Source: Escherichia phage ESCO5. Taken from it: a stretch of 64,000 nucleotides of DNA. Location of the stretch: the sequence record NC_047776.2, one strand, 5' to 3'. Position numbers and translations under genes: made by a program. Positions 34,203-64,000 of the stretch are shown here, piece after piece (within the stretch, counting starts at the first letter, position 1; every line of letters starts with the position of its first letter). The notes beneath the pieces were generated by a model that was given only the letters and a program-made list of their open reading frames with translations, did not search any database and was not told the DNA's origin.

Positions 34203-34220
34203 TCTTTTCTCCTCTCTTTG

Positions 34221-34280
34221 CGGGGAACTATTCCCCGCTTCATTTGATATATATCTTACTCTTTTTAAGAACTATGTCAA
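34221..34280 (-). promoter_or_regulatory. promoter plus 5' stem-loop cassette upstream of terC
   Basis: On the - strand: TTGACA (34280-34275), -10-like TAAGAT/TATATA, then hairpin gcggggaa-cta-ttccccgc, RBS and ATG at 34202. Confidence 0.45.
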
Positions 34281-55415: not shown

Positions 55416-55682
55416 TTATTTTTTGTTTTCTTGCCAGGATAGGACACCTAACCAAAAATGCATATCGCCCCGCGCCCCTGGTGGGATCTTGCTTTCCCCG
55501 CCGCCACTGCAAGCCCATAAATAACCATCAGCGAACGGATCAAAGTTTTCTATTTCTTCCACCTTATGATCGCCCAGGTTGAGAACTGTTTCAACCTTTA
55601 AGCCCGTTGCGCTTGCTACCTGGTGCACCGTGCCGCCTTGCCAGCCTAATGAGTGCATAAGGTGTAATGTAGTATTCGTCAT
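55416..55682 (-). CDS. hypothetical protein in a GC-richer segment
   Basis: 88-aa ORF on the - strand with codon composition visibly GC-richer than the rest of the window; weak RBS. Confidence 0.35.
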   Translation of the reverse strand: MTNTTLHLMHSLGWQGGTVHQVASATGLKVETVLNLGDHKVEEIENFDPFADGYLWACSGGGESKIPPGARGDMHFWLGVLSWQENKK

Positions 55683-55790
55683 GGTGTCGCCCTTTCTTTG
55701 TTGTGCGCCCTGGTTGGCGCGGTAGAAAGATGATAGCCCTTTCTTTTATATATAGCAAGCAAAAAGAAAATAAAAAGATTGAAAAAGTGA

Positions 55791-55849
55791 TTGACGTTCG
55801 CCAGGTGGCGGCATAATATTTACCACGTAGGGCGGCAATGGTGCCGCTC
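55791..55849 (+). promoter_or_regulatory. promoter plus 5' stem-loop cassette
   Basis: TTGACG-N17-TAATAT then ttaccacgtaGGGCGGCAatggTGCCGCtca hairpin just downstream of the -10. Confidence 0.55.
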
Positions 55850-55868
55850 ATTATTTGGAGTTAAAATC

Positions 55869-56066
55869 ATGGCAACATTGCACATTGTGGCGAAAGCTGG
55901 ACAAATAAACGTGGTAGTAAACGGTTTTACTGAGTTCAGTCATCCCCAGGATGATCATGAAACGGTTTTATCTTTCATTGATTCTCTGTTAGAAATGGGA
56001 GTCATTACAGAAGACCAGCACGCTACAAAATGCAAGCGCGTTAATCAAATTGCAGGGATAGAATAA
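55869..56066 (+). CDS. hypothetical small early-type protein
   Basis: 65 aa from the ATG after GGAG; the track start at 55791 lies inside the promoter. Confidence 0.5.
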   Translation: MATLHIVAKAGQINVVVNGFTEFSHPQDDHETVLSFIDSLLEMGVITEDQHATKCKRVNQIAGIE

Positions 56067-56073
56067 AAAGTAT

Positions 56074-56131
56074 TGACAACAAACAACAACCTGATAAGAT
56101 GTATCACATAGGGCGGCGGAATGGTCCACCG
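56074..56131 (+). promoter_or_regulatory. promoter plus 5' stem-loop cassette
   Basis: TTGACA, -10-like TAAGAT, then atagggcggcggaatggtccaccgc hairpin; the ctgataagatgtatcacatagggcggcgga segment recurs at 57531. Confidence 0.5.
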
Positions 56132-56157
56132 CTCACAACAGAAGAGAGATTATAATC

Positions 56158-56430
56158 ATGGCATCATATAGCGCAACAATGATCGTAGCTGGCACCACTG
56201 GTAAACCTATGAGCGGTGGCGGATCTTTCGCAAATATCAACATTGACGGGCGTTTATCCCTGGACGCAGCGATCACCGTGGCGCGGGAAACATTTAAGAA
56301 AGAATGTAAATTCAATAAACAAGATTATCTCGGTTTTGCTATTGAAAAAACCGCGCGCTTTGTTGATTATAAAAGCCCGAAGATGGTTGATACTACACTA
56401 AAAGCGCAAGATGTAGCGTTTTTGCTTTAA
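56158..56430 (+). CDS. hypothetical small early-type protein
   Basis: 90-aa ORF. Confidence 0.5.
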   Translation: MASYSATMIVAGTTGKPMSGGGSFANINIDGRLSLDAAITVARETFKKECKFNKQDYLGFAIEKTARFVDYKSPKMVDTTLKAQDVAFLL

Positions 56431-56434
56431 GGCT

Positions 56435-56489
56435 TGACATTAACGAATAATTTGTTAATATGTTACATAAAGCGGGAATAGTTCCCGCT
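56435..56489 (+). promoter_or_regulatory. promoter plus 5' stem-loop cassette
   Basis: TTGACA, TTAATAT, hairpin agcgggaa-tag-ttcccgct. Confidence 0.5.
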
Positions 56490-56506
56490 ATTTGTAAGGT
56501 GGTAGA

Positions 56507-56764
56507 ATGTTTTACATCAAATTAAAAGGTCACGTGATCGCGTTCAAAGATAACGCTTTTTACAGATTAGCAAAATATGCGTTAATACATCCCCACTATG
56601 TTTATATAAGGGGGCGTGATGAAATAAATATCTTTGATCAAACAACATGCGAGAACATCGAGATCCGCAAGGTTGGCGTACGTGATTATCGTACATCTTT
56701 CTACCCTTGCAAGGATTCAGCAAGTCTTTTTAAAGTATGCCAATTGTTGAAAAAAGGTGGTTAA
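56507..56764 (+). CDS. hypothetical small early-type protein
   Basis: 85-aa ORF. Confidence 0.5.
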   Translation: MFYIKLKGHVIAFKDNAFYRLAKYALIHPHYVYIRGRDEINIFDQTTCENIEIRKVGVRDYRTSFYPCKDSASLFKVCQLLKKGG

Positions 56765-56765
56765 T

Positions 56766-57323
56766 ATGGGCCGCGAATATGTGATCCAGTCTTGGGTAAA
56801 ACATGAAGCAGATGATCCGCGCATCATTCCCGATCATCTTATCGATGAATCCACGGGATATAGCGGTGAGCAAATAGGTAACAGATTAGCACGTAGTAAC
56901 GGCAACGTAAAAGCGCGTTATGTGCGCCCTGGCTGGCTGGCAAATGGTAACGCTGATTTATCCAGTGCGGAAGATGCGAGCGACGGCGCGAAAGATAATC
57001 CTTTGTACAAAGTTGATCCGGCTTTTCGTGTCCTGGATGAATACCCCAGCAAGATAGCGGCGCTCGATCAGGCCCTGGAAAGTCAGCGCATCACCTGGAC
57101 CGCTTACAACATGGCAAAAAACGTACTTGATGGTAAATTGATTCAAGCTGAAAGAAAATTAGCCAAAATTGCAGCCATAGCCCAGGAGGAAGACGAGGAG
57201 ACAACGGAAGAGGAAGAGTACGAAGAGATCCCGCCGTTGTTGTGTGTTGATGCTTTTCCTGATTATCAGCCGACAGAGGAAGAAAAAAGGATCGCACTAG
57301 AAAACTTTGAAAATAGTCTTTGA
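56766..57323 (+). CDS. hypothetical protein with strongly acidic C-terminal region
   Basis: Start placed at the ATG after GGTGG; C-terminal EEDEETTEEEEYEEIPP. Confidence 0.5.
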   Translation: MGREYVIQSWVKHEADDPRIIPDHLIDESTGYSGEQIGNRLARSNGNVKARYVRPGWLANGNADLSSAEDASDGAKDNPLYKVDPAFRVLDEYPSKIAALDQALESQRITWTAYNMAKNVLDGKLIQAERKLAKIAAIAQEEDEETTEEEEYEEIPPLLCVDAFPDYQPTEEEKRIALENFENSL

Positions 57324-57376
57324 CATATCGCCGCCACTGGCATAATATTTACCACGTAGGGCGGCAATGGTGCCGC
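57319..57376 (+). promoter_or_regulatory. promoter plus 5' stem-loop cassette
   Basis: TTGACA-N17-TAATAT plus the same ttaccacgtagggcggcaatggtgccgctca leader as at 55821 and 60166. Confidence 0.55.
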
Positions 57377-57404
57377 TCATAGTGAAATTATGCAAGAGGC
57401 TTAC

Positions 57405-57500
57405 AATGATTAATAAAGGAAATAGCTTGACGGTTGGAACGATTAACGCTATCATTCTCGCCGTTCCATTTTGGGTTGTAGTAGCGGCTATTATTTTCTA
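57405..57500 (+). CDS. hypothetical 31-aa hydrophobic peptide
   Basis: Only ORF available downstream of the cassette before the next promoter (MINKGNSLTVGTINAIILAVPFWVVVAAIIF). Confidence 0.3.
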
Positions 57501-57510
57501 AAAAATATTC

Positions 57511-57563
57511 TTGACAACGTTTTTTAATCTGATAAGATGTATCACATAGGGCGGCGGAATACT
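57511..57563 (+). promoter_or_regulatory. promoter plus 5' stem-loop cassette
   Basis: TTGACA, gataagat, hairpin gggcggcggaatacttccccgcc. Confidence 0.5.
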
Positions 57564-57592
57564 TCCCCGCCAAAACAAAAAAGGGTAACACA

Positions 57593-57955
57593 ATGAGCAA
57601 GCAAATCAATACTATCATGTTAAACCTGGTATCCTTCCGCGATGATATGAAAAATTTACCACGTGAAACGGTTGATATTCATGTTTCAGCTTATCGCGCC
57701 CTTATTGACATGTTACCGCTAAAACGTGATCAACATGCCGCTAATATGATGCTTAATGCTATGCTTAAAAAAATGATTCAAACGGATCTCACTCTGGCGT
57801 ATGAGTATCAAGGGCGCTTATATGCAACTTACAACAAGGCGGTACCTGGTCTGGGAAGTACCGAAGAGTTGCACGGCTTAAACCTGGATCAAAACACTTG
57901 GGATAGTATGCGCCGCGTTATGGTATGGGCCGAAAGCGGTAAAATTTACGAATAA
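57593..57955 (+). CDS. hypothetical early-type protein
   Basis: 120-aa ORF. Confidence 0.5.
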   Translation: MSKQINTIMLNLVSFRDDMKNLPRETVDIHVSAYRALIDMLPLKRDQHAANMMLNAMLKKMIQTDLTLAYEYQGRLYATYNKAVPGLGSTEELHGLNLDQNTWDSMRRVMVWAESGKIYE

Positions 57956-57961
57956 AAACGG

Positions 57962-58022
57962 TTGACACTGTTTAAAATTCTAGTATAGTTTACCACATAG
58001 GGCGGGAAGTGGTTTCCCGCCA
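57962..58022 (+). promoter_or_regulatory. promoter plus 5' stem-loop cassette
   Basis: TTGACA-N16-TATAGT, hairpin ggcgggaa-gtggt-ttcccgcc; leader nearly identical to the one at 58748. Confidence 0.55.
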
Positions 58023-58043
58023 ACAATGAAAAAGGTTATCATC

Positions 58044-58409
58044 ATGGCTATTAATATTAATGTTTCCTCTTATGCTACCCTGGCTAACACGGCTAAAATT
58101 GAATTATCCAGCATTGAGGCGGTGCATATTAGCGCCCGTCGCTGGTTTCAACAGTCCTACGGTAACACATATTTTTCTTTAATGGTTGACGTTGAGATCG
58201 GCGGCAAACTGATTGAAGTGGTAAACGTGCCGTTCCAATATGGATACGGGGATCACTTTGACACTGTAGCAATGGAAGAATTTAGCAAGGTTATTAATAT
58301 GGAAGGTAAAGAGTTTTCACGCGGCGAGTATCTTTCCCGTTTTTGCCGTGACAATGGGATCACTGTATACAGTCATGCAAGCGATGTTAAACGTAAAAAA
58401 GATCTATAA
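58044..58409 (+). CDS. hypothetical early-type protein
   Basis: Start placed at ATGGCT by analogy with the duplicated leader at 58830 (aaaggttatcatcATGgct). Confidence 0.5.
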   Translation: MAININVSSYATLANTAKIELSSIEAVHISARRWFQQSYGNTYFSLMVDVEIGGKLIEVVNVPFQYGYGDHFDTVAMEEFSKVINMEGKEFSRGEYLSRFCRDNGITVYSHASDVKRKKDL

Positions 58410-58415
58410 AAAGCA

Positions 58416-58476
58416 TTGACAGCACGAATAAAAAGAGTAAACTGTATTACATAGAGAGCGGGAACACTTCCCGCCT
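58416..58476 (+). promoter_or_regulatory. promoter plus 5' stem-loop cassette
   Basis: TTGACA, weak -10, hairpin agcgggaa-cac-ttcccgcc. Confidence 0.45.
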
Positions 58477-58498
58477 CACTGAAAAAGAGAGAAAAATC

Positions 58499-58738
58499 AT
58501 GGCTAAATCTAAAATTTACAACGGTCACAAAAACAAAACTCATTGGAATGTAAGCCTTTGGATCAACAACGATGAAGGTTTTTATAATCTTGCGCGTGAA
58601 TTTATTGCAGCTAACACCAATAAGAATGACGCAGCGCGTGATATGATGTTATTTCTTGAAAGTATGGATCAAGATAAAACGCCAGACGGTTACAAGTTCA
58701 GTAAAACTGCAATCCGTGCCGCTATGGTAGGAATGTAA
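58499..58738 (+). CDS. hypothetical small early-type protein
   Basis: 79-aa ORF. Confidence 0.5.
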   Translation: MAKSKIYNGHKNKTHWNVSLWINNDEGFYNLAREFIAANTNKNDAARDMMLFLESMDQDKTPDGYKFSKTAIRAAMVGM

Positions 58739-58747
58739 TAAAATAGC

Positions 58748-58807
58748 TTGACACTGATTTTTATTCTGGTATAGTTTATCACATAGGGCGGGAAGTGGTT
58801 TCCCGCC
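58748..58807 (+). promoter_or_regulatory. promoter plus 5' stem-loop cassette
   Basis: TTGACA-N16-TATAGT, hairpin ggcgggaa-gtggt-ttcccgcc. Confidence 0.55.
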
Positions 58808-58829
58808 AAATCAAAGAAAGGTTATCATT

Positions 58830-59057
58830 ATGGCTATCGTTATTGTTCGCGTATCCGGCACGGTTGGAATCTCCCAGGTAGTAGCAGTTATCACCGAGAA
58901 GAAAGGGGATGATCTTCACTCTTCCTTGAATAGCTGGGCGGTCGCTAACTTCGGGCAATGGTCGAGCGTCGAGTACATCGAATCCTACCAGGTGCCGACG
59001 ATTAGCCTAACCGATCTCAACGTTGATCGCTTGTTGTGCCTGGATGAATTAATCTGA
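58830..59057 (+). CDS. hypothetical small early-type protein
   Basis: 75-aa ORF. Confidence 0.5.
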   Translation: MAIVIVRVSGTVGISQVVAVITEKKGDDLHSSLNSWAVANFGQWSSVEYIESYQVPTISLTDLNVDRLLCLDELI

Positions 59058-59067
59058 AAAAAGATTA

Positions 59068-59124
59068 TTGACACCGGAAAGAAAAAGAGTAGAATATATT
59101 ACATAGGGCGGCAATGGTGCCGCT
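59068..59124 (+). promoter_or_regulatory. promoter plus 5' stem-loop cassette
   Basis: TTGACA-N16-TAGAAT, hairpin gggcggcaatggtgccgc. Confidence 0.55.
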
Positions 59125-59146
59125 CACAACTAAAAGAGAAATCATC

Positions 59147-59341
59147 ATGGCGCTTAAAAAACTAACAAGCAATACTCGTTGGGATGAAATTGACGGGGAA
59201 GTATACATTTTCGCCCGTAAACCAGGTGATCAAAAATGGTCAAAGGCTTTTACTTGCCACCCTGCAACAATAGACCTGATAAAAAGGGAAGGTTTACGTG
59301 AAGCGGTAGCAAGAAGTTTACTGATCCCTTATAAAAAATAG
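59147..59341 (+). CDS. hypothetical small early-type protein
   Basis: Start placed at the ATG (MALKKLTS...); the track start at 59114 lies inside the hairpin. Confidence 0.5.
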   Translation: MALKKLTSNTRWDEIDGEVYIFARKPGDQKWSKAFTCHPATIDLIKREGLREAVARSLLIPYKK

Positions 59342-59342
59342 T

Positions 59343-59405
59343 TTGACAATATGCTGTTATCTGGTAAAGTGTACGACATAGGGCGGGGCAATAAGGCAAC
59401 GCCCA
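59343..59405 (+). promoter_or_regulatory. promoter plus 5' stem-loop cassette
   Basis: TTGACA, TAAAGT, hairpin gggcg-gggcaataaggcaa-cgccc. Confidence 0.45.
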
Positions 59406-59422
59406 TTAATGAGGGTAGAATC

Positions 59423-59527
59423 ATGTTAGAGAAAATTTTCACGGTTGTAATAGTTGGCCTGGCGTTATCGGTTGGATTGGTTGCAACTATGGCTAACATG
59501 ATCCTATCTTCCCACGGTATTGGATAA
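59423..59527 (+). CDS. hypothetical 34-aa membrane peptide
   Basis: First ORF after the cassette (MLEKIFTVVIVGLALSVGLVATMANMILSSHGIG). Confidence 0.3.
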   Translation: MLEKIFTVVIVGLALSVGLVATMANMILSSHGIG

Positions 59528-59537
59528 GGTGAATCAA

Positions 59538-59753
59538 ATGATCACGAATAAGACAGGTAAAACAGAATTTTTACGCGGCTTGCAAATAGGTAAACCTGAG
59601 ATCTGGCATTGCACTAAATCCGCGCATAATGAAATGAAAGATTTTACCGCTACTTTACAACGTGTTAAAATATCTATCACACAGAAAAAAGCCTTGTTAG
59701 TAGTAGAAAACGAGATCCCGCAAACTATTATTATTGTCGAGCGTACAGCATGA
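59538..59753 (+). CDS. hypothetical small early-type protein
   Basis: Start placed at the ATG after AAGGTG (MITNKTGK...). Confidence 0.45.
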   Translation: MITNKTGKTEFLRGLQIGKPEIWHCTKSAHNEMKDFTATLQRVKISITQKKALLVVENEIPQTIIIVERTA

Positions 59754-60136
59754 AAACAGAAATCATTATTGAAATCATCAACGGCTATAAAGAAGCCTTT
59801 ATTTTTGCTGAATCAGCAAGGGATCATGAAGGTAATTTTATTGATAACTTAGACGATTATGATTTTTCTCCTAGCGCGGACGAACGGATCGCCCAAGATG
59901 TAACAGCCTTTATTAATGCTAATCTTGCCGCTATCTCTGAGGCAATGAGCGACGGCGCAACAGCCAACCAGATCGGGAATGATTTACATTTTACCCGTAA
60001 CGGTCACGGCGTAGGCTTTTGGGATCGCCCTGAAATATACACCACTAACACGGCGAACCGCCTAACCAATGCAGCTAAGTTTATGCCGAACGTGTCGGCT
60101 TACATTGGTGAAGATAATTTGATTTATATTGAATAA
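59750..60136 (+). CDS. hypothetical early-type protein
   Basis: 128-aa ORF; ATGA overlap with the upstream gene. Confidence 0.5.
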   Translation: MKTEIIIEIINGYKEAFIFAESARDHEGNFIDNLDDYDFSPSADERIAQDVTAFINANLAAISEAMSDGATANQIGNDLHFTRNGHGVGFWDRPEIYTTNTANRLTNAAKFMPNVSAYIGEDNLIYIE

Positions 60137-60142
60137 AAAGTA

Positions 60143-60254
60143 TTGACACAGATCGCCAGTGTGCTAATATTTACCACGTAGGGCGGCAATGGTGCCGCTG
60201 ACACAGATCGCCAGTGTGCTAATATTTACCACGTAGGGCGGCAATGGTGCCGCC
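60143..60254 (+). promoter_or_regulatory. tandemly duplicated promoter plus stem-loop cassette
   Basis: TTGACA at 60143-60148; the 55-bp unit gacacagatcgccagtgtgctaatatttaccacgtagggcggcaatggtgccgc(t/c) occurs twice head-to-tail (60145-60199, 60200-60254). Confidence 0.6.
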
Positions 60255-60272
60255 GATAATGAGGAAAGTAAA

Positions 60273-60572
60273 ATGGAAACTATCGCTATTGTTACCGTAG
60301 AAAAACTGGTTGTTGGTGATGTATTCGCGTTAATGGTGCCTAACAGCAGCAAGCTGGGCGCTTATGAAGTAATGGATCATAAAAATGAATCATTTGGCGA
60401 CGGTTGCACAATGGCGGTAAAATCTTTAAAGGATGGAATCATCCGCCAGGCTAACTGGCACAAAGGGAATCAAGTCGGTTTAATATCAGCTAATTTCTTG
60501 CCAGAAGAGCAAACGTTAGACCAACTATCAGGCGGTAAGACGTTAGCCGAACTACTGGAAACAGCGATCTAA
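60273..60572 (+). CDS. hypothetical early-type protein
   Basis: 99-aa ORF with RBS GAGGAAAG. Confidence 0.5.
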   Translation: METIAIVTVEKLVVGDVFALMVPNSSKLGAYEVMDHKNESFGDGCTMAVKSLKDGIIRQANWHKGNQVGLISANFLPEEQTLDQLSGGKTLAELLETAI

Positions 60573-60580
60573 TCAACAAA

Positions 60581-60596
60581 GGGGCGGCAACGCCCC
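60581..60596 (+). promoter_or_regulatory. intercistronic GC stem-loop (no -35/-10 recognised)
   Basis: ggggcg-gcaa-cgcccc between two genes, no U-tract; likely RNA stability or processing element. Confidence 0.4.
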
Positions 60597-60616
60597 ACAT
60601 CAGAAAGGAAAAGATT

Positions 60617-60853
60617 ATGAGTATTGCAACAGTATTAAACGCCGTTAAAACCGCTGAATCATCCGGCTTGCATGTTGAGCTTATAGATCAACCAGGTGGC
60701 GATCTCCTTGTCCAGGTTTACCCGCCGAAAGTAGGGGATGATTATTATTGGGCTTATTCTGATACGTTCGAACAAGTAGACACGAAAGCGATCACGGCTT
60801 TTATTTTAAAAACTATTGAAGAAAATAACTTTCATCATAACATCAATCAATAA
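60617..60853 (+). CDS. hypothetical small early-type protein
   Basis: 78-aa ORF. Confidence 0.5.
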   Translation: MSIATVLNAVKTAESSGLHVELIDQPGGDLLVQVYPPKVGDDYYWAYSDTFEQVDTKAITAFILKTIEENNFHHNINQ

Positions 60854-60863
60854 ACCATAAGCG

Positions 60864-60879
60864 GGGCGGTAACGCCCCA
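60864..60879 (+). promoter_or_regulatory. intercistronic GC stem-loop
   Basis: ggggcg-gtaa-cgcccc, same type as at 60581. Confidence 0.4.
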
Positions 60880-60907
60880 TTAAACGCAATAGGAAGAGGA
60901 TAGACGC

Positions 60908-61198
60908 ATGAAAAAGATGATCGCAGTAGTTGCCCTGGTTGTTGGTATTAACGCGCCTGTACTGGCTAATGAGTTGCCAGAATCCATCACGCTAACCGAT
61001 ATCAACGCAATAAACCGGATCGGCGTTAATTATCGCCTATGCCTTGCCGCTAAAACTTTCCAGGACGGCACGACAGAATACCACGGATTCGAGGGTATCC
61101 GCTGCGGTGAGCTTGCACGCGACCTTAAGGAAGATCCAGACCTTGAGGCCATACCGATGACCGTAAACGGTAAAGCTTACGTAAACCGCCAACAATGA
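60908..61198 (+). CDS. hypothetical secreted protein
   Basis: 96 aa; N-terminal signal-like MKKMIAVVALVVGINAPVLA. Confidence 0.5.
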   Translation: MKKMIAVVALVVGINAPVLANELPESITLTDINAINRIGVNYRLCLAAKTFQDGTTEYHGFEGIRCGELARDLKEDPDLEAIPMTVNGKAYVNRQQ

Positions 61199-61215
61199 GA
61201 AAGGTAATCATCACA

Positions 61216-61329
61216 ATGGGGATCGTAGTAGCAACGCTGGCGCTTATCCCCTTCATGGTTGAACATGTGCTGATCAGTGTTGTCCTTGTAGTCAGTGACC
61301 TATTGGAAACGGTTGGCACCTGGTTTTAA
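61216..61329 (+). CDS. hypothetical 37-aa membrane peptide
   Basis: RBS AAAGGTAA then ATG; hydrophobic product; followed by a terminator-like hairpin. Confidence 0.3.
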   Translation: MGIVVATLALIPFMVEHVLISVVLVVSDLLETVGTWF

Positions 61330-61334
61330 GATAA

Positions 61335-61366
61335 TAAATAGGGCTTGCAATAGTCCTATTTTTTGT
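61335..61366 (+). terminator. terminator-like hairpin with T-run
   Basis: Imperfect hairpin tagggc...gtccta followed by ttttttg. Confidence 0.35.
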
Positions 61367-61503
61367 TATACTTATTGAACGGGCGGCACCTGGGAGCAGG
61401 GGAAGATAATCACCGGAAGACCCCGCTATATATTGATAACTAACGCCTATCAAACAACAAAACATCAAAGGAACAAACTATCAAATCTTTACAATTCTAC
61501 CTA

Positions 61504-61562
61504 TTGACACCGGATCACGCTTACATTATTATTTATCACGTAGGGCGGGAATGTTTCCCGCC
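61504..61562 (+). promoter_or_regulatory. promoter plus 5' stem-loop cassette
   Basis: TTGACA-N17-TATTAT, hairpin ggcgggaa-tg-tttcccgcc. Confidence 0.55.
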
Positions 61563-61580
61563 TGATTTAGGAGTCATATC

Positions 61581-61814
61581 ATGATCGAACAAATTAAAAG
61601 CACTAAACCAAATGTTAACGGTAATGTTTCTCACTTTATCGGGGATAATGAAAGAGGTACACCGTACGCCGCCGTAACCGTTCAACCGAACGGGGATTAT
61701 TGGTTTACCGTGTACGGATCTTACTCTTTTGGACGTTCGGCACATGATAAGATCTTGCAAGTGGTTAAGCCTACTGGGAAGAATATCACAGCAGAAAAAT
61801 TTTATAAAAAATAG
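61581..61814 (+). CDS. hypothetical small early-type protein
   Basis: 77-aa ORF with RBS AGGAG. Confidence 0.5.
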   Translation: MIEQIKSTKPNVNGNVSHFIGDNERGTPYAAVTVQPNGDYWFTVYGSYSFGRSAHDKILQVVKPTGKNITAEKFYKK

Positions 61815-61815
61815 C

Positions 61816-61875
61816 TTGCTTTATAGCTCCTGTTAACTTATAGTTATTGCGTAGGGCGAGCAATACAGCAAGCCC
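61816..61875 (+). promoter_or_regulatory. promoter plus 5' stem-loop cassette (variant)
   Basis: TTGCTT-N17-TATAGT then gcgtagggcgagcaatacagcaagccc. Confidence 0.45.
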
Positions 61876-61892
61876 ACAAAGAGGAAAATAAA

Positions 61893-62261
61893 ATGAGCAA
61901 ATCAGCAATTAAAGCACTTGAAAAAGCACAAGAAGTGATCGCAACGTCAACCACTGGCGCAAAGGTTAATCTCGTTTGTTATCTGACAGATGAAACTATC
62001 CGTAAAAATTGGCGTAATGCTGATTTACTGGCTTGCTTATTGATTAATAGTGTCGCTAATGCTTTCCAGTGTGAAACAGCCGAGAGCCTGGAGGAAAACT
62101 TGTTTGATAATATGGATCAAGCCATTGAAACCTATATACAATCAAACCTGGATAGCTGGAACAGTAAAACATGGCCCGACAATTTACGCGATACAACTGA
62201 TCAACTGATCCGCCTTGCCCTGATGGTTGAACGCGATAACGTTCACAACCGCACAAAGTAA
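61893..62261 (+). CDS. hypothetical early-type protein
   Basis: 122-aa ORF with RBS AGAGGAAA. Confidence 0.5.
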   Translation: MSKSAIKALEKAQEVIATSTTGAKVNLVCYLTDETIRKNWRNADLLACLLINSVANAFQCETAESLEENLFDNMDQAIETYIQSNLDSWNSKTWPDNLRDTTDQLIRLALMVERDNVHNRTK

Positions 62262-62326
62262 GATTATACAAGGGCGCACTAAGCGCCCTTTAACGTAAAG
62301 AAATGTAAATAATGCGCTATCCCCTA

Positions 62327-62355
62327 TTGACAGGGGATCGGCGTTATATTATATT
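62327..62355 (+). promoter_or_regulatory. sigma70-like promoter (TTGACA-N17-TATATT)
   Basis: The -35 sits in a small palindrome cccctattgacagggg; preceded by hairpin agggcgcactaagcgccct at about 62270-62290. Confidence 0.5.
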
Positions 62356-62400
62356 TAACTCACTGGCAGCAAACAACGAAATGAAACAAAGGATAACAAC

Positions 62401-62820
62401 ATGAACATTAAATCAAATAATCCGGCTTACTCTTTCGATAATGCTTTTTGTCACGGGAGCGCCGCTAAAGGCTTCGAAATTGAGGGTAAGCTGGTTATTG
62501 TGAACGTTGACGGGGAAGAGGTTGCAGTATATCCGGCAAACGATGTTAAAAGCCGTCTACAATGCCGCATGGATGTTACCGCATATCAGCTTGATCCGAT
62601 CCGTGTAGTTGCCCTGGTCCTGGAGGAAGAGATCAAAGCAATGCATCATAGCAATAAGTTTATTGGTGACGCGCAGGACAATATGAAAGTATGCCGCAGT
62701 AAAGTTAACGAAGCATTGAAAGAATACGGTTTTAAGGATCTGATGATTAAACGTGATGAAAAATTCCGCTTTCGTAATGACCTGGCGAACCGGATCTACT
62801 CAATCTATGAAGCGTTATAA
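62401..62820 (+). CDS. hypothetical early-type protein
   Basis: 139-aa ORF, last gene before the terminator and the non-coding region. Confidence 0.5.
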   Translation: MNIKSNNPAYSFDNAFCHGSAAKGFEIEGKLVIVNVDGEEVAVYPANDVKSRLQCRMDVTAYQLDPIRVVALVLEEEIKAMHHSNKFIGDAQDNMKVCRSKVNEALKEYGFKDLMIKRDEKFRFRNDLANRIYSIYEAL

Positions 62821-62834
62821 TTGACAACAAAACA

Positions 62835-62862
62835 AGGGCGCACCAAGCGCCCTTTCTTTTTG
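62835..62862 (+). terminator. rho-independent terminator
   Basis: agggcg-caccaa-gcgccct hairpin followed by ttctttttg. Confidence 0.65.
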
Positions 62863-63069
62863 CCCGAACAATGTTGATAGATTCCGCCTATGAAAAACCG
62901 ACACAGAACAAAATTGCATAATTTGCGCTATCGAGCTAATCAACCAGCAAACGAATAACCATACACCCCAGGGTTACAGGCTGTTAGAGAGCTATTTAGA
63001 GCGGTTAAAATCGATCAACAACCAACAACAAACAACCGAAAAAGGCTGTTTTCTTCCTTTCCAGTGCAA

Positions 63070-63084
63070 TGATAACCATTATCA
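63070..63084. promoter_or_regulatory. Fur-box-like 7-1-7 palindrome
   Basis: TGATAAC-C-ATTATCA matches the Fur 7-1-7 consensus (tGATAATnATTATCa) at 14 of 15 positions. Confidence 0.4.
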
Positions 63085-63139
63085 TCTACCCTTGCGTATC
63101 TATACAATATAAGTGCATAACTATAATGTTGATAATAGT

Positions 63140-63330
63140 TCGCAACAACTAACCAACCAACAACCTAAAACAATAAGCAAACTAATCATAATCAAAGGAA
63201 TAATAGCAAGATGATTGATAACGACAAACAATCAAACCATGATGAATACTAAGCAAGATAACGATAACACGACAAAACAACCAACTAACGAACAATAACA
63301 AACGAAACCATTAAAATAATAACTATTAGC
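63140..63330 (+). repeat. A+C-rich strand-skewed low-complexity region (non-coding)
   Basis: About 190 bp made almost entirely of A and C with few G or T (caacaactaaccaaccaacaacctaaaacaataagcaaac...); no ORF. Confidence 0.5.
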
Positions 63331-63480
63331 AAAATAGTGCCTGAATGAAATCATTACAAAACGAATCATTCACAGAGTCATCATTAGCACGCTATGCCGG
63401 ACACATAGCGAGCTAATAATAAGCCAACTACACCCCAACAATCATAACCATCGGTGACGGTTATTTCTTGTTACTGCGTA

Positions 63481-63499
63481 GCTTGCAATAATTGCAAGC
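63481..63499. repeat. perfect 19-bp palindrome
   Basis: gcttgcaat-a-attgcaagc. Confidence 0.6.
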
Positions 63500-63823
63500 G
63501 TAATGACGCTTACACTTATTGCGCTGGCTTATTATTAGCATTATATGTAATTACCAAGATCATAACATTAGCGCAATAACAATAATCATTGTAATGATTA
63601 TGTAAGGAAACAATTAGCATGGCAATAATTATGGGGGCAATGGGAGGATGATTATCATCATTCCGATACATTGCACACTATGCACATAATAGAATAAAAG
63701 TCAATAATTTTGGGGGCGAAATGTTACCGCCACAGGCGGGAATGTTGAGCAAGTTCTCTTAAACGTAAATAAAATCAGAAAATTCTTGATTTATTTTGGC
63801 TTTTATGTTAATAAACGTTTAAA

Positions 63824-63838
63824 TAATAATCATTCTCA
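63824..63838. promoter_or_regulatory. Fur-box-like palindrome
   Basis: TAATAAT-C-ATTCTCA, same half-site (ATTCTCA) as at 55140-55154; related sites at 63581-63601 and 63648-63663. Confidence 0.35.
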
Positions 63839-64000
63839 TATAAATAATAGTCTGCTTGTCATGAGCGGGATTAGTTGACATTGTTCCGTCATATGATGAA
63901 GTTGCCAAACCATTGATAAATAAGTGTTTGTGTGATTTATAATCAAGTGGCCCACCTTGTCGCTATGTTGGCATGAGCCTTGCATAAGTCATTGAATACG

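Follow-up and report, generated by a model that had tools for sequence, protein, structure and literature searches.

Promoter–hairpin cassettes as apparent joints of gene exchange in a small-gene array of a phAPEC8/phi92-like coliphage

Within a 64,000-nucleotide (nt) stretch of Escherichia phage ESCO5 (NC_047776.2; the whole stretch is called the window here), positions 55791–62862 hold an array of 20 small genes, close to the number in the initial annotation (about 20), all on the + strand (55869–62820) and placed by start codons with ribosome binding sites. A strong σ70-type promoter precedes thirteen of these genes and a weak one precedes one more, and each promoter is followed by a GC-rich hairpin. 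Comparison with related phages indicates that these promoter–hairpin cassettes are joints at which genes are deleted, swapped and duplicated, which is the best-supported part of our analysis. We consider it probable that the array is a hyperplastic, presumably immediate-early region with portable cassettes of about 90 bp, in which a structural hairpin at the 5′ end of the RNA is combined with recombination between cassettes.

Scanning for a −35/−10 pair followed by a GC-rich hairpin within 14 nt identified 13 + strand cassettes in the array (at 55791, 56073, 56434, 57320, 57511, 57962, 58416, 58748, 59068, 59343, 60143, 60198 and 61504), to which a 14th, with a weak −35 box, can be added at 61819. 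The − strand of the window has one cassette, at 34280. The initial annotation saw a promoter and hairpin before almost every small open reading frame (ORF); this stands for 13–14 of the 20 genes and fails for the other six, which are translationally coupled or have only a hairpin upstream. The cassettes and their genes are listed below, with promoters written as −35 box, spacer length and −10 box, and with a slash in the core that marks the predicted start.

55791–55849, + strand: cassette c1; TTGACG-17-TAATAT (55791–55819), core CAC/GTAGGGCGG, hairpin 55830–55849 (ΔG −14.4, z −3.7); predicted to drive gene 55869–56066.
56073–56134, + strand: cassette c2; TTGACA-16-TAAGAT with extended −10, hairpin 56111–56134; gene 56158–56430.
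56434–56489, + strand: cassette c3; TTGACA-16-TAATAT, hairpin 56471–56489 (AGCGGGAATAGTTCCCGCT), without the RTAGGG core; gene 56507–56764 and the coupled gene 56766–57323.
57320–57378, + strand: cassette c4; promoter overlapping the end of the upstream ORF, hairpin 57359–57378; predicted to drive the gene of a 31-amino-acid membrane peptide, 57406–57501.
57511–57571, + strand: cassette c5; hairpin 57550–57571; gene 57593–57955.
57962–58021, + strand: cassette c6; TTGACA-16-TATAGT, hairpin 58001–58021, sharing a 108-nt repeat with c8; gene 58044–58409.
58416–58477, + strand: cassette c7; hairpin 58454–58477 with a bulged A; gene 58499–58738 (DUF7249).
58748–58807, + strand: cassette c8; hairpin 58787–58807; gene 58830–59057.
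59068–59125, + strand: cassette c9, a chimaera with a left part of KKP 3954 type and a right part from the leader of phi92 gp243; hairpin 59106–59125; gene 59147–59341.
59343–59404, + strand: cassette c10; hairpin 59381–59404 with an internal loop; three-gene operon 59423–59527, 59538–59753 and 59750–60136.
60143–60254, + strand: cassettes c11 and c12, promoter and hairpin in a perfect tandem duplication of 55 bp (60144–60198, 60199–60253); gene 60273–60572.
61504–61563, + strand: cassette c13; TTGACA-17-TATTAT, hairpin 61543–61563, crossover partner in the AV126 chimaera; gene 61581–61814.
61819–61876, + strand: cassette c14; weak −35 (TTGCTT), −10 TATAGT, core GTAGGGCG, hairpin at about 61854–61875; gene 61893–62261.

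Among 258 matching phage records, the best match to positions 55700–62900 is Escherichia phage vB_EcoM-P3322 (Phapecoctavirus, Stephanstirmvirinae), with 94% identity over 96% of the query. The closest relatives of the window belong to Phapecoctavirus and Justusliebigvirus, both in the Stephanstirmvirinae, and its sequence points to a phAPEC8/phi92-like, Phapecoctavirus-like coliphage of this subfamily, not a T4-type phage. Coverage of the query among relatives ranges from 49 to 96%, and many relatives match only about half of it; the region therefore varies within the phage group.

This variation is concentrated at the cassettes. BLAST comparison of the array with eight relatives gave 24 clusters of homology breakpoints, 17 of which lie inside the cassette intervals that make up 23% of the sequence (binomial P = 9 × 10⁻⁷). 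Promoters and hairpins are also reassorted in front of the same gene. Across relatives, gene 56158 has three hairpin types behind two promoter types; here the window and P3322 share a promoter and differ in the hairpin, and the hairpin type at this position (c2) differs in phage Paula as well. Gene 58830 has two promoter types and two hairpin types, gene 59423 has three promoter types and a single hairpin, and gene 61893 is preceded by its own weak promoter or by the strong c13 promoter, depending on the phage. The swaps between relatives that the initial annotation suspected are thus borne out by breakpoints, exchanged modules and chimeric junctions alike.

The junctions themselves can be read in two aligned cases. 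Gene 61581–61814 is missing from AV126 and Ro121c4YLVW, and AV126 has a chimeric cassette that follows c13 up to CGTAGGGCG and c14 from there on. In the window, c9 matches the KKP 3954 cassette that follows gene 58830 up to GCCGCTCACAAC, and beyond that point the leader of phi92 gp243. This junction accounts for the absence from the window of a block of about 3.9 kb with about 13 small genes, which is present in P3322, Ro121c4YLVW, KKP 3954 and AV126; the gap lies between two type-A cassettes, and in place of the block the window has a 64-amino-acid gene that is 95–99% identical to a phi92-type (Justusliebigvirus) gene. The crossovers of the chimeric cassettes map to the shared core or to the hairpin.

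Duplications complete the record. A repeat finder recovered the families of duplicated cassettes and leaders named in the initial annotation, including a 108-nt pair at 57951/58737 and the tandem 55-bp duplication at 60144–60253, in which the second −35 box becomes CTGACA. Because the c11/c12 cassette is single-copy in all seven relatives that carry the homologous gene, this tandem duplication looks recent. Relatives also have cassette remnants, with GTAGGGC and no hairpin. As a separate observation on the first cassette, P3322 (2850–3013) and Paula (about 1597–1752) have, in place of its hairpin, a leader of about 120 nt with AGGAGG and then a six-codon mini-ORF (ATGCAGGACGGGCAAAGGTGA); the leader precedes a different gene in Paula than in P3322.

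The repeated design stands well above chance. The 11 occurrences of the octamer TAGGGCGG, where chance would give 0.54, all lie on the + strand, from 55828 to 61548, and 13 promoter-like sites scoring at least 10/12 are found in the array, compared with 1.5 ± 1.2 in dinucleotide shuffles and 0.32 per kb in the rest of the window. We counted the elements of the cassette in 104 unique sequences drawn from 11 sources, ten related loci and the window itself. Of these 104, 78 have TTGACA as the −35 box, 73 a spacer of 16 nt, 30 a spacer of 17 nt, and 45 an extended −10 (TG). A-rich sequence occupies −45 to −39, and the stop codon of the upstream gene lies inside an A-rich stretch. Around the predicted start the core CAC/RTAGGGCGG is almost invariant, with its purine exactly 7 nt from the −10 box in 87 cassettes. 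A σ70 polymerase is expected to start at a purine that has a pyrimidine before it and is the eighth nucleotide beyond the −10 box, and for this reason we place the predicted start at the R of CAC/R. The RNA is predicted to begin with RUA and to leave 3–4 nt unpaired before the hairpin: its first paired base would be +4 or +5 in 59 of 62 unique cassettes, and the hairpin begins 10–14 nt downstream of the −10 box in every cassette. After the hairpin comes an A-rich leader with a ribosome binding site, then ATG. Cassettes are strictly co-directional with the genes, and the hairpin keeps a fixed register to the promoter. A T-run (at least 5 T in the next 8 nt) follows only 2 of the 14 hairpins, c1 and c3, which have T-rich tails; the other 12 run into A-rich sequence, and a terminator scan lists only 1 of the 14.

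The hairpin is conserved as a structure. All 15 hairpins of the window fold at −11.3 to −15.3 kcal/mol (z-scores −2.1 to −5.2), and 87% of the unique cassettes reach −12 kcal/mol or better, compared with 0.8% of random 34-mers. The stem base, GGCGG paired with CCGCC, is nearly invariant on both arms, and the apical stem and loop vary: at least 10 apex versions occur (for example, CA-AUGG-UG, GAA-UAG-UUC, GAAA-UGG-UUUC, CGGA-AUGG-UCCA and GGGGCG-ACAAG-CGCCCC), all of them self-complementary, with loops that include AUGG, UAG, GUGGU, UGU, CAC, UAC and ACAAG. Because plain MAFFT alignments of the cassettes were structurally incoherent, we used an N-padded alignment in which each left-arm position faces its partner, fitted to the predicted fold of each hairpin. 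In this alignment 90.5% of cells are paired (78% in shuffles), 6 of 10 pairs change on both sides, and the covariation score is 0.289, compared with 0.137 in shuffles (none of 500 as high) and 0.03–0.08 in slid controls. When right arms were swapped between hairpin classes, the mean energy rose from −13.5 to −10.1 kcal/mol. The initial annotation had correctly expected the structure to be kept, but its picture of a conserved left arm with a co-varying loop and right arm needs revision: both arms of the stem base are invariant, and only the apical pairs co-vary.

In near-identical hairpins, substitutions are denser in the loops than elsewhere. At two orthologous hairpins the apex is exactly inverted between Paula (5233, 2667) and JLBYU50 (5290, 2478), CAATAGTG against CACTATTG and AATAGTT against AACTATT, which implies that the loop sequence carries no information. 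Such an inversion is a signature of palindrome-mediated template switching or of recombination within the hairpin.

The cassettes are largely confined to arrays of this kind. In the 150-kb genome of P3322 the family occurs only in the array (19–20 copies) and before alx, and the − strand cassette of the window, which the initial annotation placed upstream of terC, precedes an alx/TerC-family gene by homology to and position in P3322. A cassette query matches 130 phage records; the four that we opened (Paula, P3322, JLBYU50 and KP13-26) all belong to the Stephanstirmvirinae, and the other listed matches are phages of this type, 130–160 kb long. KP13-26, a divergent Klebsiella phage, keeps the core as cac/RTAGRGCGG with different hairpins. 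The same query found no match in 5,426 Escherichia coli genomes, which rules out a host-derived repeat of the repetitive extragenic palindromic (REP) type. Rfam 15 gave no match in the window at the gathering threshold, and none at E values up to 1 in 55600–64000. We found no earlier description of these cassettes in the literature on this phage group.

In the mechanism that we favour, each portable cassette would consist, in order, of an upstream stop codon in an A-rich stretch, a near-consensus σ70 promoter (often with an extended −10), CAC/RTAGGGCGG, a GC-rich hairpin of 7–11 bp (transcript positions +4 to +25, approximately), a leader that is A-rich and unstructured, a Shine–Dalgarno sequence and ATG. 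The sequences establish this layout, the kept structure, the restriction of the family to this array and the history of recombination, whereas we infer that the promoters are active, where transcription starts and what the hairpin does to the RNA. Host σ70 RNA polymerase would fire each promoter early in infection, every transcript would start with RUA and a stable hairpin, and, because most hairpins have no U-tract, transcription would continue through most of them into the downstream genes. The hairpin would work as a structure and not as a sequence-specific site, giving the RNA 5′ end partial cover against RppH and RNase E and folding as a self-contained module inside read-through RNA, so that the leader stays open to ribosomes. 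Stem-loops at the 5′ terminus stabilize E. coli mRNAs, according to the work referenced in PMC3997798, and the almost invariant U at nucleotide 2 of the predicted cassette RNA is of the type disfavoured by RppH, which disfavours a pyrimidine at this position (PMC8833179). As DNA, the 40–100 bp of shared cassette sequence, present every 250–450 bp in the densest part of the array, would be a substrate for homologous and microhomology recombination, through which genes would be lost, replaced or duplicated and promoters, hairpins and leaders combined anew.

Several points weigh against this explanation or narrow it. RppH and RNase E require at least two unpaired 5′ nt and prefer at least three (PMC8833179), so that the 3–4 nt predicted here would suffice for both enzymes and protection of the 5′ end would be partial at best. 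Literature searches found no transcript maps for this phage group, and the start site is a predicted one. The promoterless hairpins at 60581 and 60862 cannot be 5′-terminal unless the RNA is processed. The conservation of RTAGGGCGG far beyond the needs of pairing, even in KP13-26, leaves room for a binding factor or for homogenization by recombination, and suggests a sequence-specific role outside the favoured explanation. With regard to the structure, an alignment built from the hairpins' own predicted folds leans towards structure and biases the percentage paired, and the evidence from point mutations in near-identical hairpins is thin: one compensatory double change (A-U to G-C, in the c7 hairpin of phiWec188), 11 one-sided changes that keep pairing and about 5 that disrupt it. 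With regard to recombination, breakpoints tend to lie between genes anyway, since it is recombinants with undamaged genes that survive.

The nearest known system, and the one to which the initial annotation likened the array, is the promoter-early stem-loop (PeSL) cassette (Arbiol et al. 2010) of the T4-type phages RB49/phi1, T4/PST and KVP40/nt-1 (PMC2839356, PMC4122927). The likeness holds for the make-up of the cassette, in which a stop codon in an A/T-rich stretch, a near-consensus σ70 promoter, a GC-rich stem-loop, a Shine–Dalgarno sequence and ATG fill the intergenic space. It holds too for gene shuffling: in both systems the cassettes cluster in a hyperplastic region whose small genes have no assigned function, and where close relatives differ by an insertion, deletion or replacement, cassettes form its borders and the junctions contain chimeric ones. 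It breaks down for the phage group, as the window phage belongs to the Stephanstirmvirinae and the hosts of PeSLs are T4-type myoviruses, and for the hairpin, which here lies downstream of the predicted start, whereas the PeSL stem-loop is variable in position, mostly between or over the −35 and −10 boxes, is upstream of the start in all subclasses and acts as a terminator (PMC2839356). Also unlike PeSLs, 12 of the 14 window hairpins have no U-tract, which makes a terminator function doubtful, the cassettes have the conserved start core RTAGGGCGG, and the stem is of the form GGCGG...CCGCC with a variable apex, in contrast to the Gn-loop-Cn stem of RB49. PeSLs are further characterized by excised mini-circles of cassette plus gene. 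The window cassettes thus work like PeSLs as genome-shuffling elements, and two PeSL features fail, the position of the stem-loop and the phage group.

Other systems share single features with the array. Stem-loops that stabilize RNA from its 5′ terminus, among them that of the T7 gene 10 leader, have a comparable layout. As far as the references in PMC3997798 describe them, the stem-loops in the 5′ untranslated regions of ompA and papA resemble the cassettes in having a stable hairpin a few nt from the 5′ end (a predicted end in the window), an unstructured leader and a ribosome binding site; unlike these stabilizers, the cassettes form a family repeated about 14-fold, with a predicted start and 3–4 nt predicted to be unpaired, which is borderline for protection. 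The morons of lambdoid phages are likewise single non-essential genes that bring their own promoter (PMC2839356), but they have no conserved flanking repeat and usually a true terminator, whereas in the window the regulatory repeat itself is the recombination joint. Unlike λ-type nut/boxB, the window loops are not conserved, two orthologous loops being exact inversions; and of an intrinsic terminator the GC-rich stem is present without, in most cases, the U-tract.

In the small-gene region of rV5 (Vequintavirinae), four or five strong σ70 promoters have a hairpin of the same type in the same register, GGCGGGAA-N3-TTCCCGCC, although the rV5 units are without the RTAGGG core and the hairpin is found at only a minority of the rV5 promoters. 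The rV5 genome paper lists promoters and terminators without noting their combination with a hairpin (PMC3606486). For several genes of this region (106.6–120.6 kb) the annotation notes a similarity to hypothetical proteins of RB49, a T4-type phage, which fits a traffic of early accessory genes between two phage groups with promoter–stem-loop cassettes.

Three other explanations of the hairpins have to be set beside the favoured one. If they were terminators or attenuators, as in T4-type PeSLs, they would damp upstream read-through and each gene would be expressed mainly from its own promoter. A PeSL stem-loop placed between a promoter and lacZ did cut expression as much as rrnB T1 (PMC2839356), annotators of related genomes labelled these hairpins ‘terminator’, and the T-rich tails of c1 and c3 and the hairpin-only modules between genes at 60581 and 60862 are compatible with such a role. 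Yet the sequence that follows 12 of the 14 hairpins is A-rich, not T-rich, and the fixed register places each hairpin downstream of the start of its own promoter, where an efficient terminator would abort its own transcript; because of these two features we regard termination as unlikely. The stem-loops of RB49/phi1, by contrast, lie mostly upstream of the start (PMC2839356), and the array has separate canonical T-run terminators only at 61336 and 62834. A rather improbable reading is that a phage or host factor binds the core, alone or together with the stem base, as DNA or as the RNA 5′ end, and thereby switches off, stabilizes or processes all early transcripts together. The core occupies +1 to +9, as is typical of an operator, and is near-invariant in the 104 unique cassettes and kept in KP13-26, while spacers, apical stems, loops and leaders vary; but frequent recombination within the core could homogenize it by itself, rV5 has the same hairpin type without RTAGGG, the variable and invertible loops exclude a loop-reading protein of the λ N/boxB type, and no candidate binding protein was identified.

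Alternatively, the hairpin could matter as a DNA palindrome, through template switching, slippage or cruciform exchange, the cassettes persisting as recombination-prone repeats without a dedicated RNA function. The exact loop inversions between orthologous hairpins, the perfect 55-bp tandem duplication, the crossovers inside core or hairpin and the tolerance of decayed hairpins and cassette remnants would all follow from this, but we hold it to be very doubtful as the whole explanation: the cassettes always point the same way as the genes and keep a fixed promoter register, most one-sided stem substitutions preserve pairing, and a hairpin is kept even where the entire hairpin module has been swapped, all of which fit selection on a transcribed structure better. 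A more speculative proposal, which we likewise think improbable, is that in phAPEC8/phi92-like phages core and stem base mark all immediate-early promoters or transcripts with one shared ‘address label’, read by a phage or host factor, and that its enforced conservation also creates a dedicated system for exchanging gene cassettes across genera. If this were true, the factor could bring about the coordinated shut-off, stabilization or processing of early transcripts.

Two further candidates were rejected. An RNase III site is ruled out by stems of only 7–11 bp. A T7-class promoter was considered on account of TAATATTTACCAC-GTAGGG at −10 to +10 and the hairpin, a likeness seen for example at 57339–57378 and 57984–58021, where TAATATTTACCAC-GTAGGG is followed by GGTTTCCC, which resembles the gene 10 5′ stem-loop; but the cassettes have a perfect TTGACA at 16–17 bp and one base is missing, and we judge the likeness to the T7-class promoter and the gene 10 stem-loop to be coincidental. 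Seven large proteins of the closest relative, hypothetical or from its tail module, were scanned for a single-subunit RNA polymerase family, and none matched; five have tail-spike or other tail-type domains and two gave no match.

The array and the window have the following further elements.

60581–60596, + strand: hairpin-only intergenic module GGGGCG-GCAA-CGCCCC, without a promoter; precedes gene 60617–60853.
60862–60879, + strand: hairpin-only intergenic module GGGGCG-GTAA-CGCCCC, without a promoter; precedes genes 60908–61198 and 61195–61329.
61336–61361, + strand: canonical intrinsic terminator, the first in the array, with a stem of 10 bp and then a T-run.
62268–62355, + strand: terminator-like hairpin (62271–62288), then promoter TTGACA-17-TATATT (62327–62355) without a 5′ hairpin; gene 62401–62820.
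62834–62854: bidirectional terminator-like hairpin that closes the array.
34220–34280, − strand: outlying cassette, TTGACA-16-TAAGAT, hairpin GCGGGGAATAGTTCCCCGC (34238–34220); upstream of the alx/TerC-family gene.

Terminators of canonical appearance stand apart from the cassettes; the array has three, at 61336, about 62271 and 62834. The two hairpin-only modules have GNRA-type tetraloops and neither a promoter nor a T-run, and may be 3′ barriers, processing sites or decayed cassettes. At 61186–61223 a fragment like a post-hairpin cassette leader (CCGCCAACAATGAGAAAGGTAATCATCACAATGG) is fused to the end of gene 60908–61198 and may be a deletion scar; the gene of the 44-amino-acid membrane peptide may start at 61217 instead of 61195. 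A small RNA in the 61330–61505 spacer was considered and rejected, as there is no structure beyond the terminator (z −0.86).

The initial annotation called the products of the array genes unknown and proposed them as candidates for host take-over or anti-defence factors; searches of all 20 proteins by sequence against Pfam, PHROGs and the PDB returned only families of ‘unknown function’ and one DUF, so that such roles stay conjectural. The array is GC-richer than the rest of the window, as the initial annotation stated, but the excess is small (about 0.41–0.44, compared with about 0.38–0.39 for most of the window). Beyond its last terminator, 62863–64000 is an A/C-rich region of more than 1.1 kb with CAACAA-type short repeats and no convincing ORF; in relatives about 1.5 kb intervenes here before small genes resume in another long series. 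The ‘non-coding’ box in the drawing of rV5 (PMC3606486) is probably its counterpart. About 22 GenBank records of about 146–151 kb each, titled ‘Campylobacter phage’, match this coliphage-type array region, one of them (MG065650.1, B15) with 96% identity, and the host label of these records looks doubtful.

These results extend cassette-mediated gene shuffling, documented so far only in T4-type phages, to a second large group, coliphages in therapeutic and model use (phAPEC8, phi92 and, in part, rV5). The clean junctions show how accessory early genes are lost, gained and placed under new promoters. The approximately 20 genes of the array, presumably early and of unknown function, together with the approximately 13 alternative genes of relatives, are marked out as the putative variable host-interaction set of these phages. 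The uniform design of the cassettes, with a strong promoter, a fixed predicted start, a 5′ hairpin and an open leader, amounts to a natural, compact expression module.

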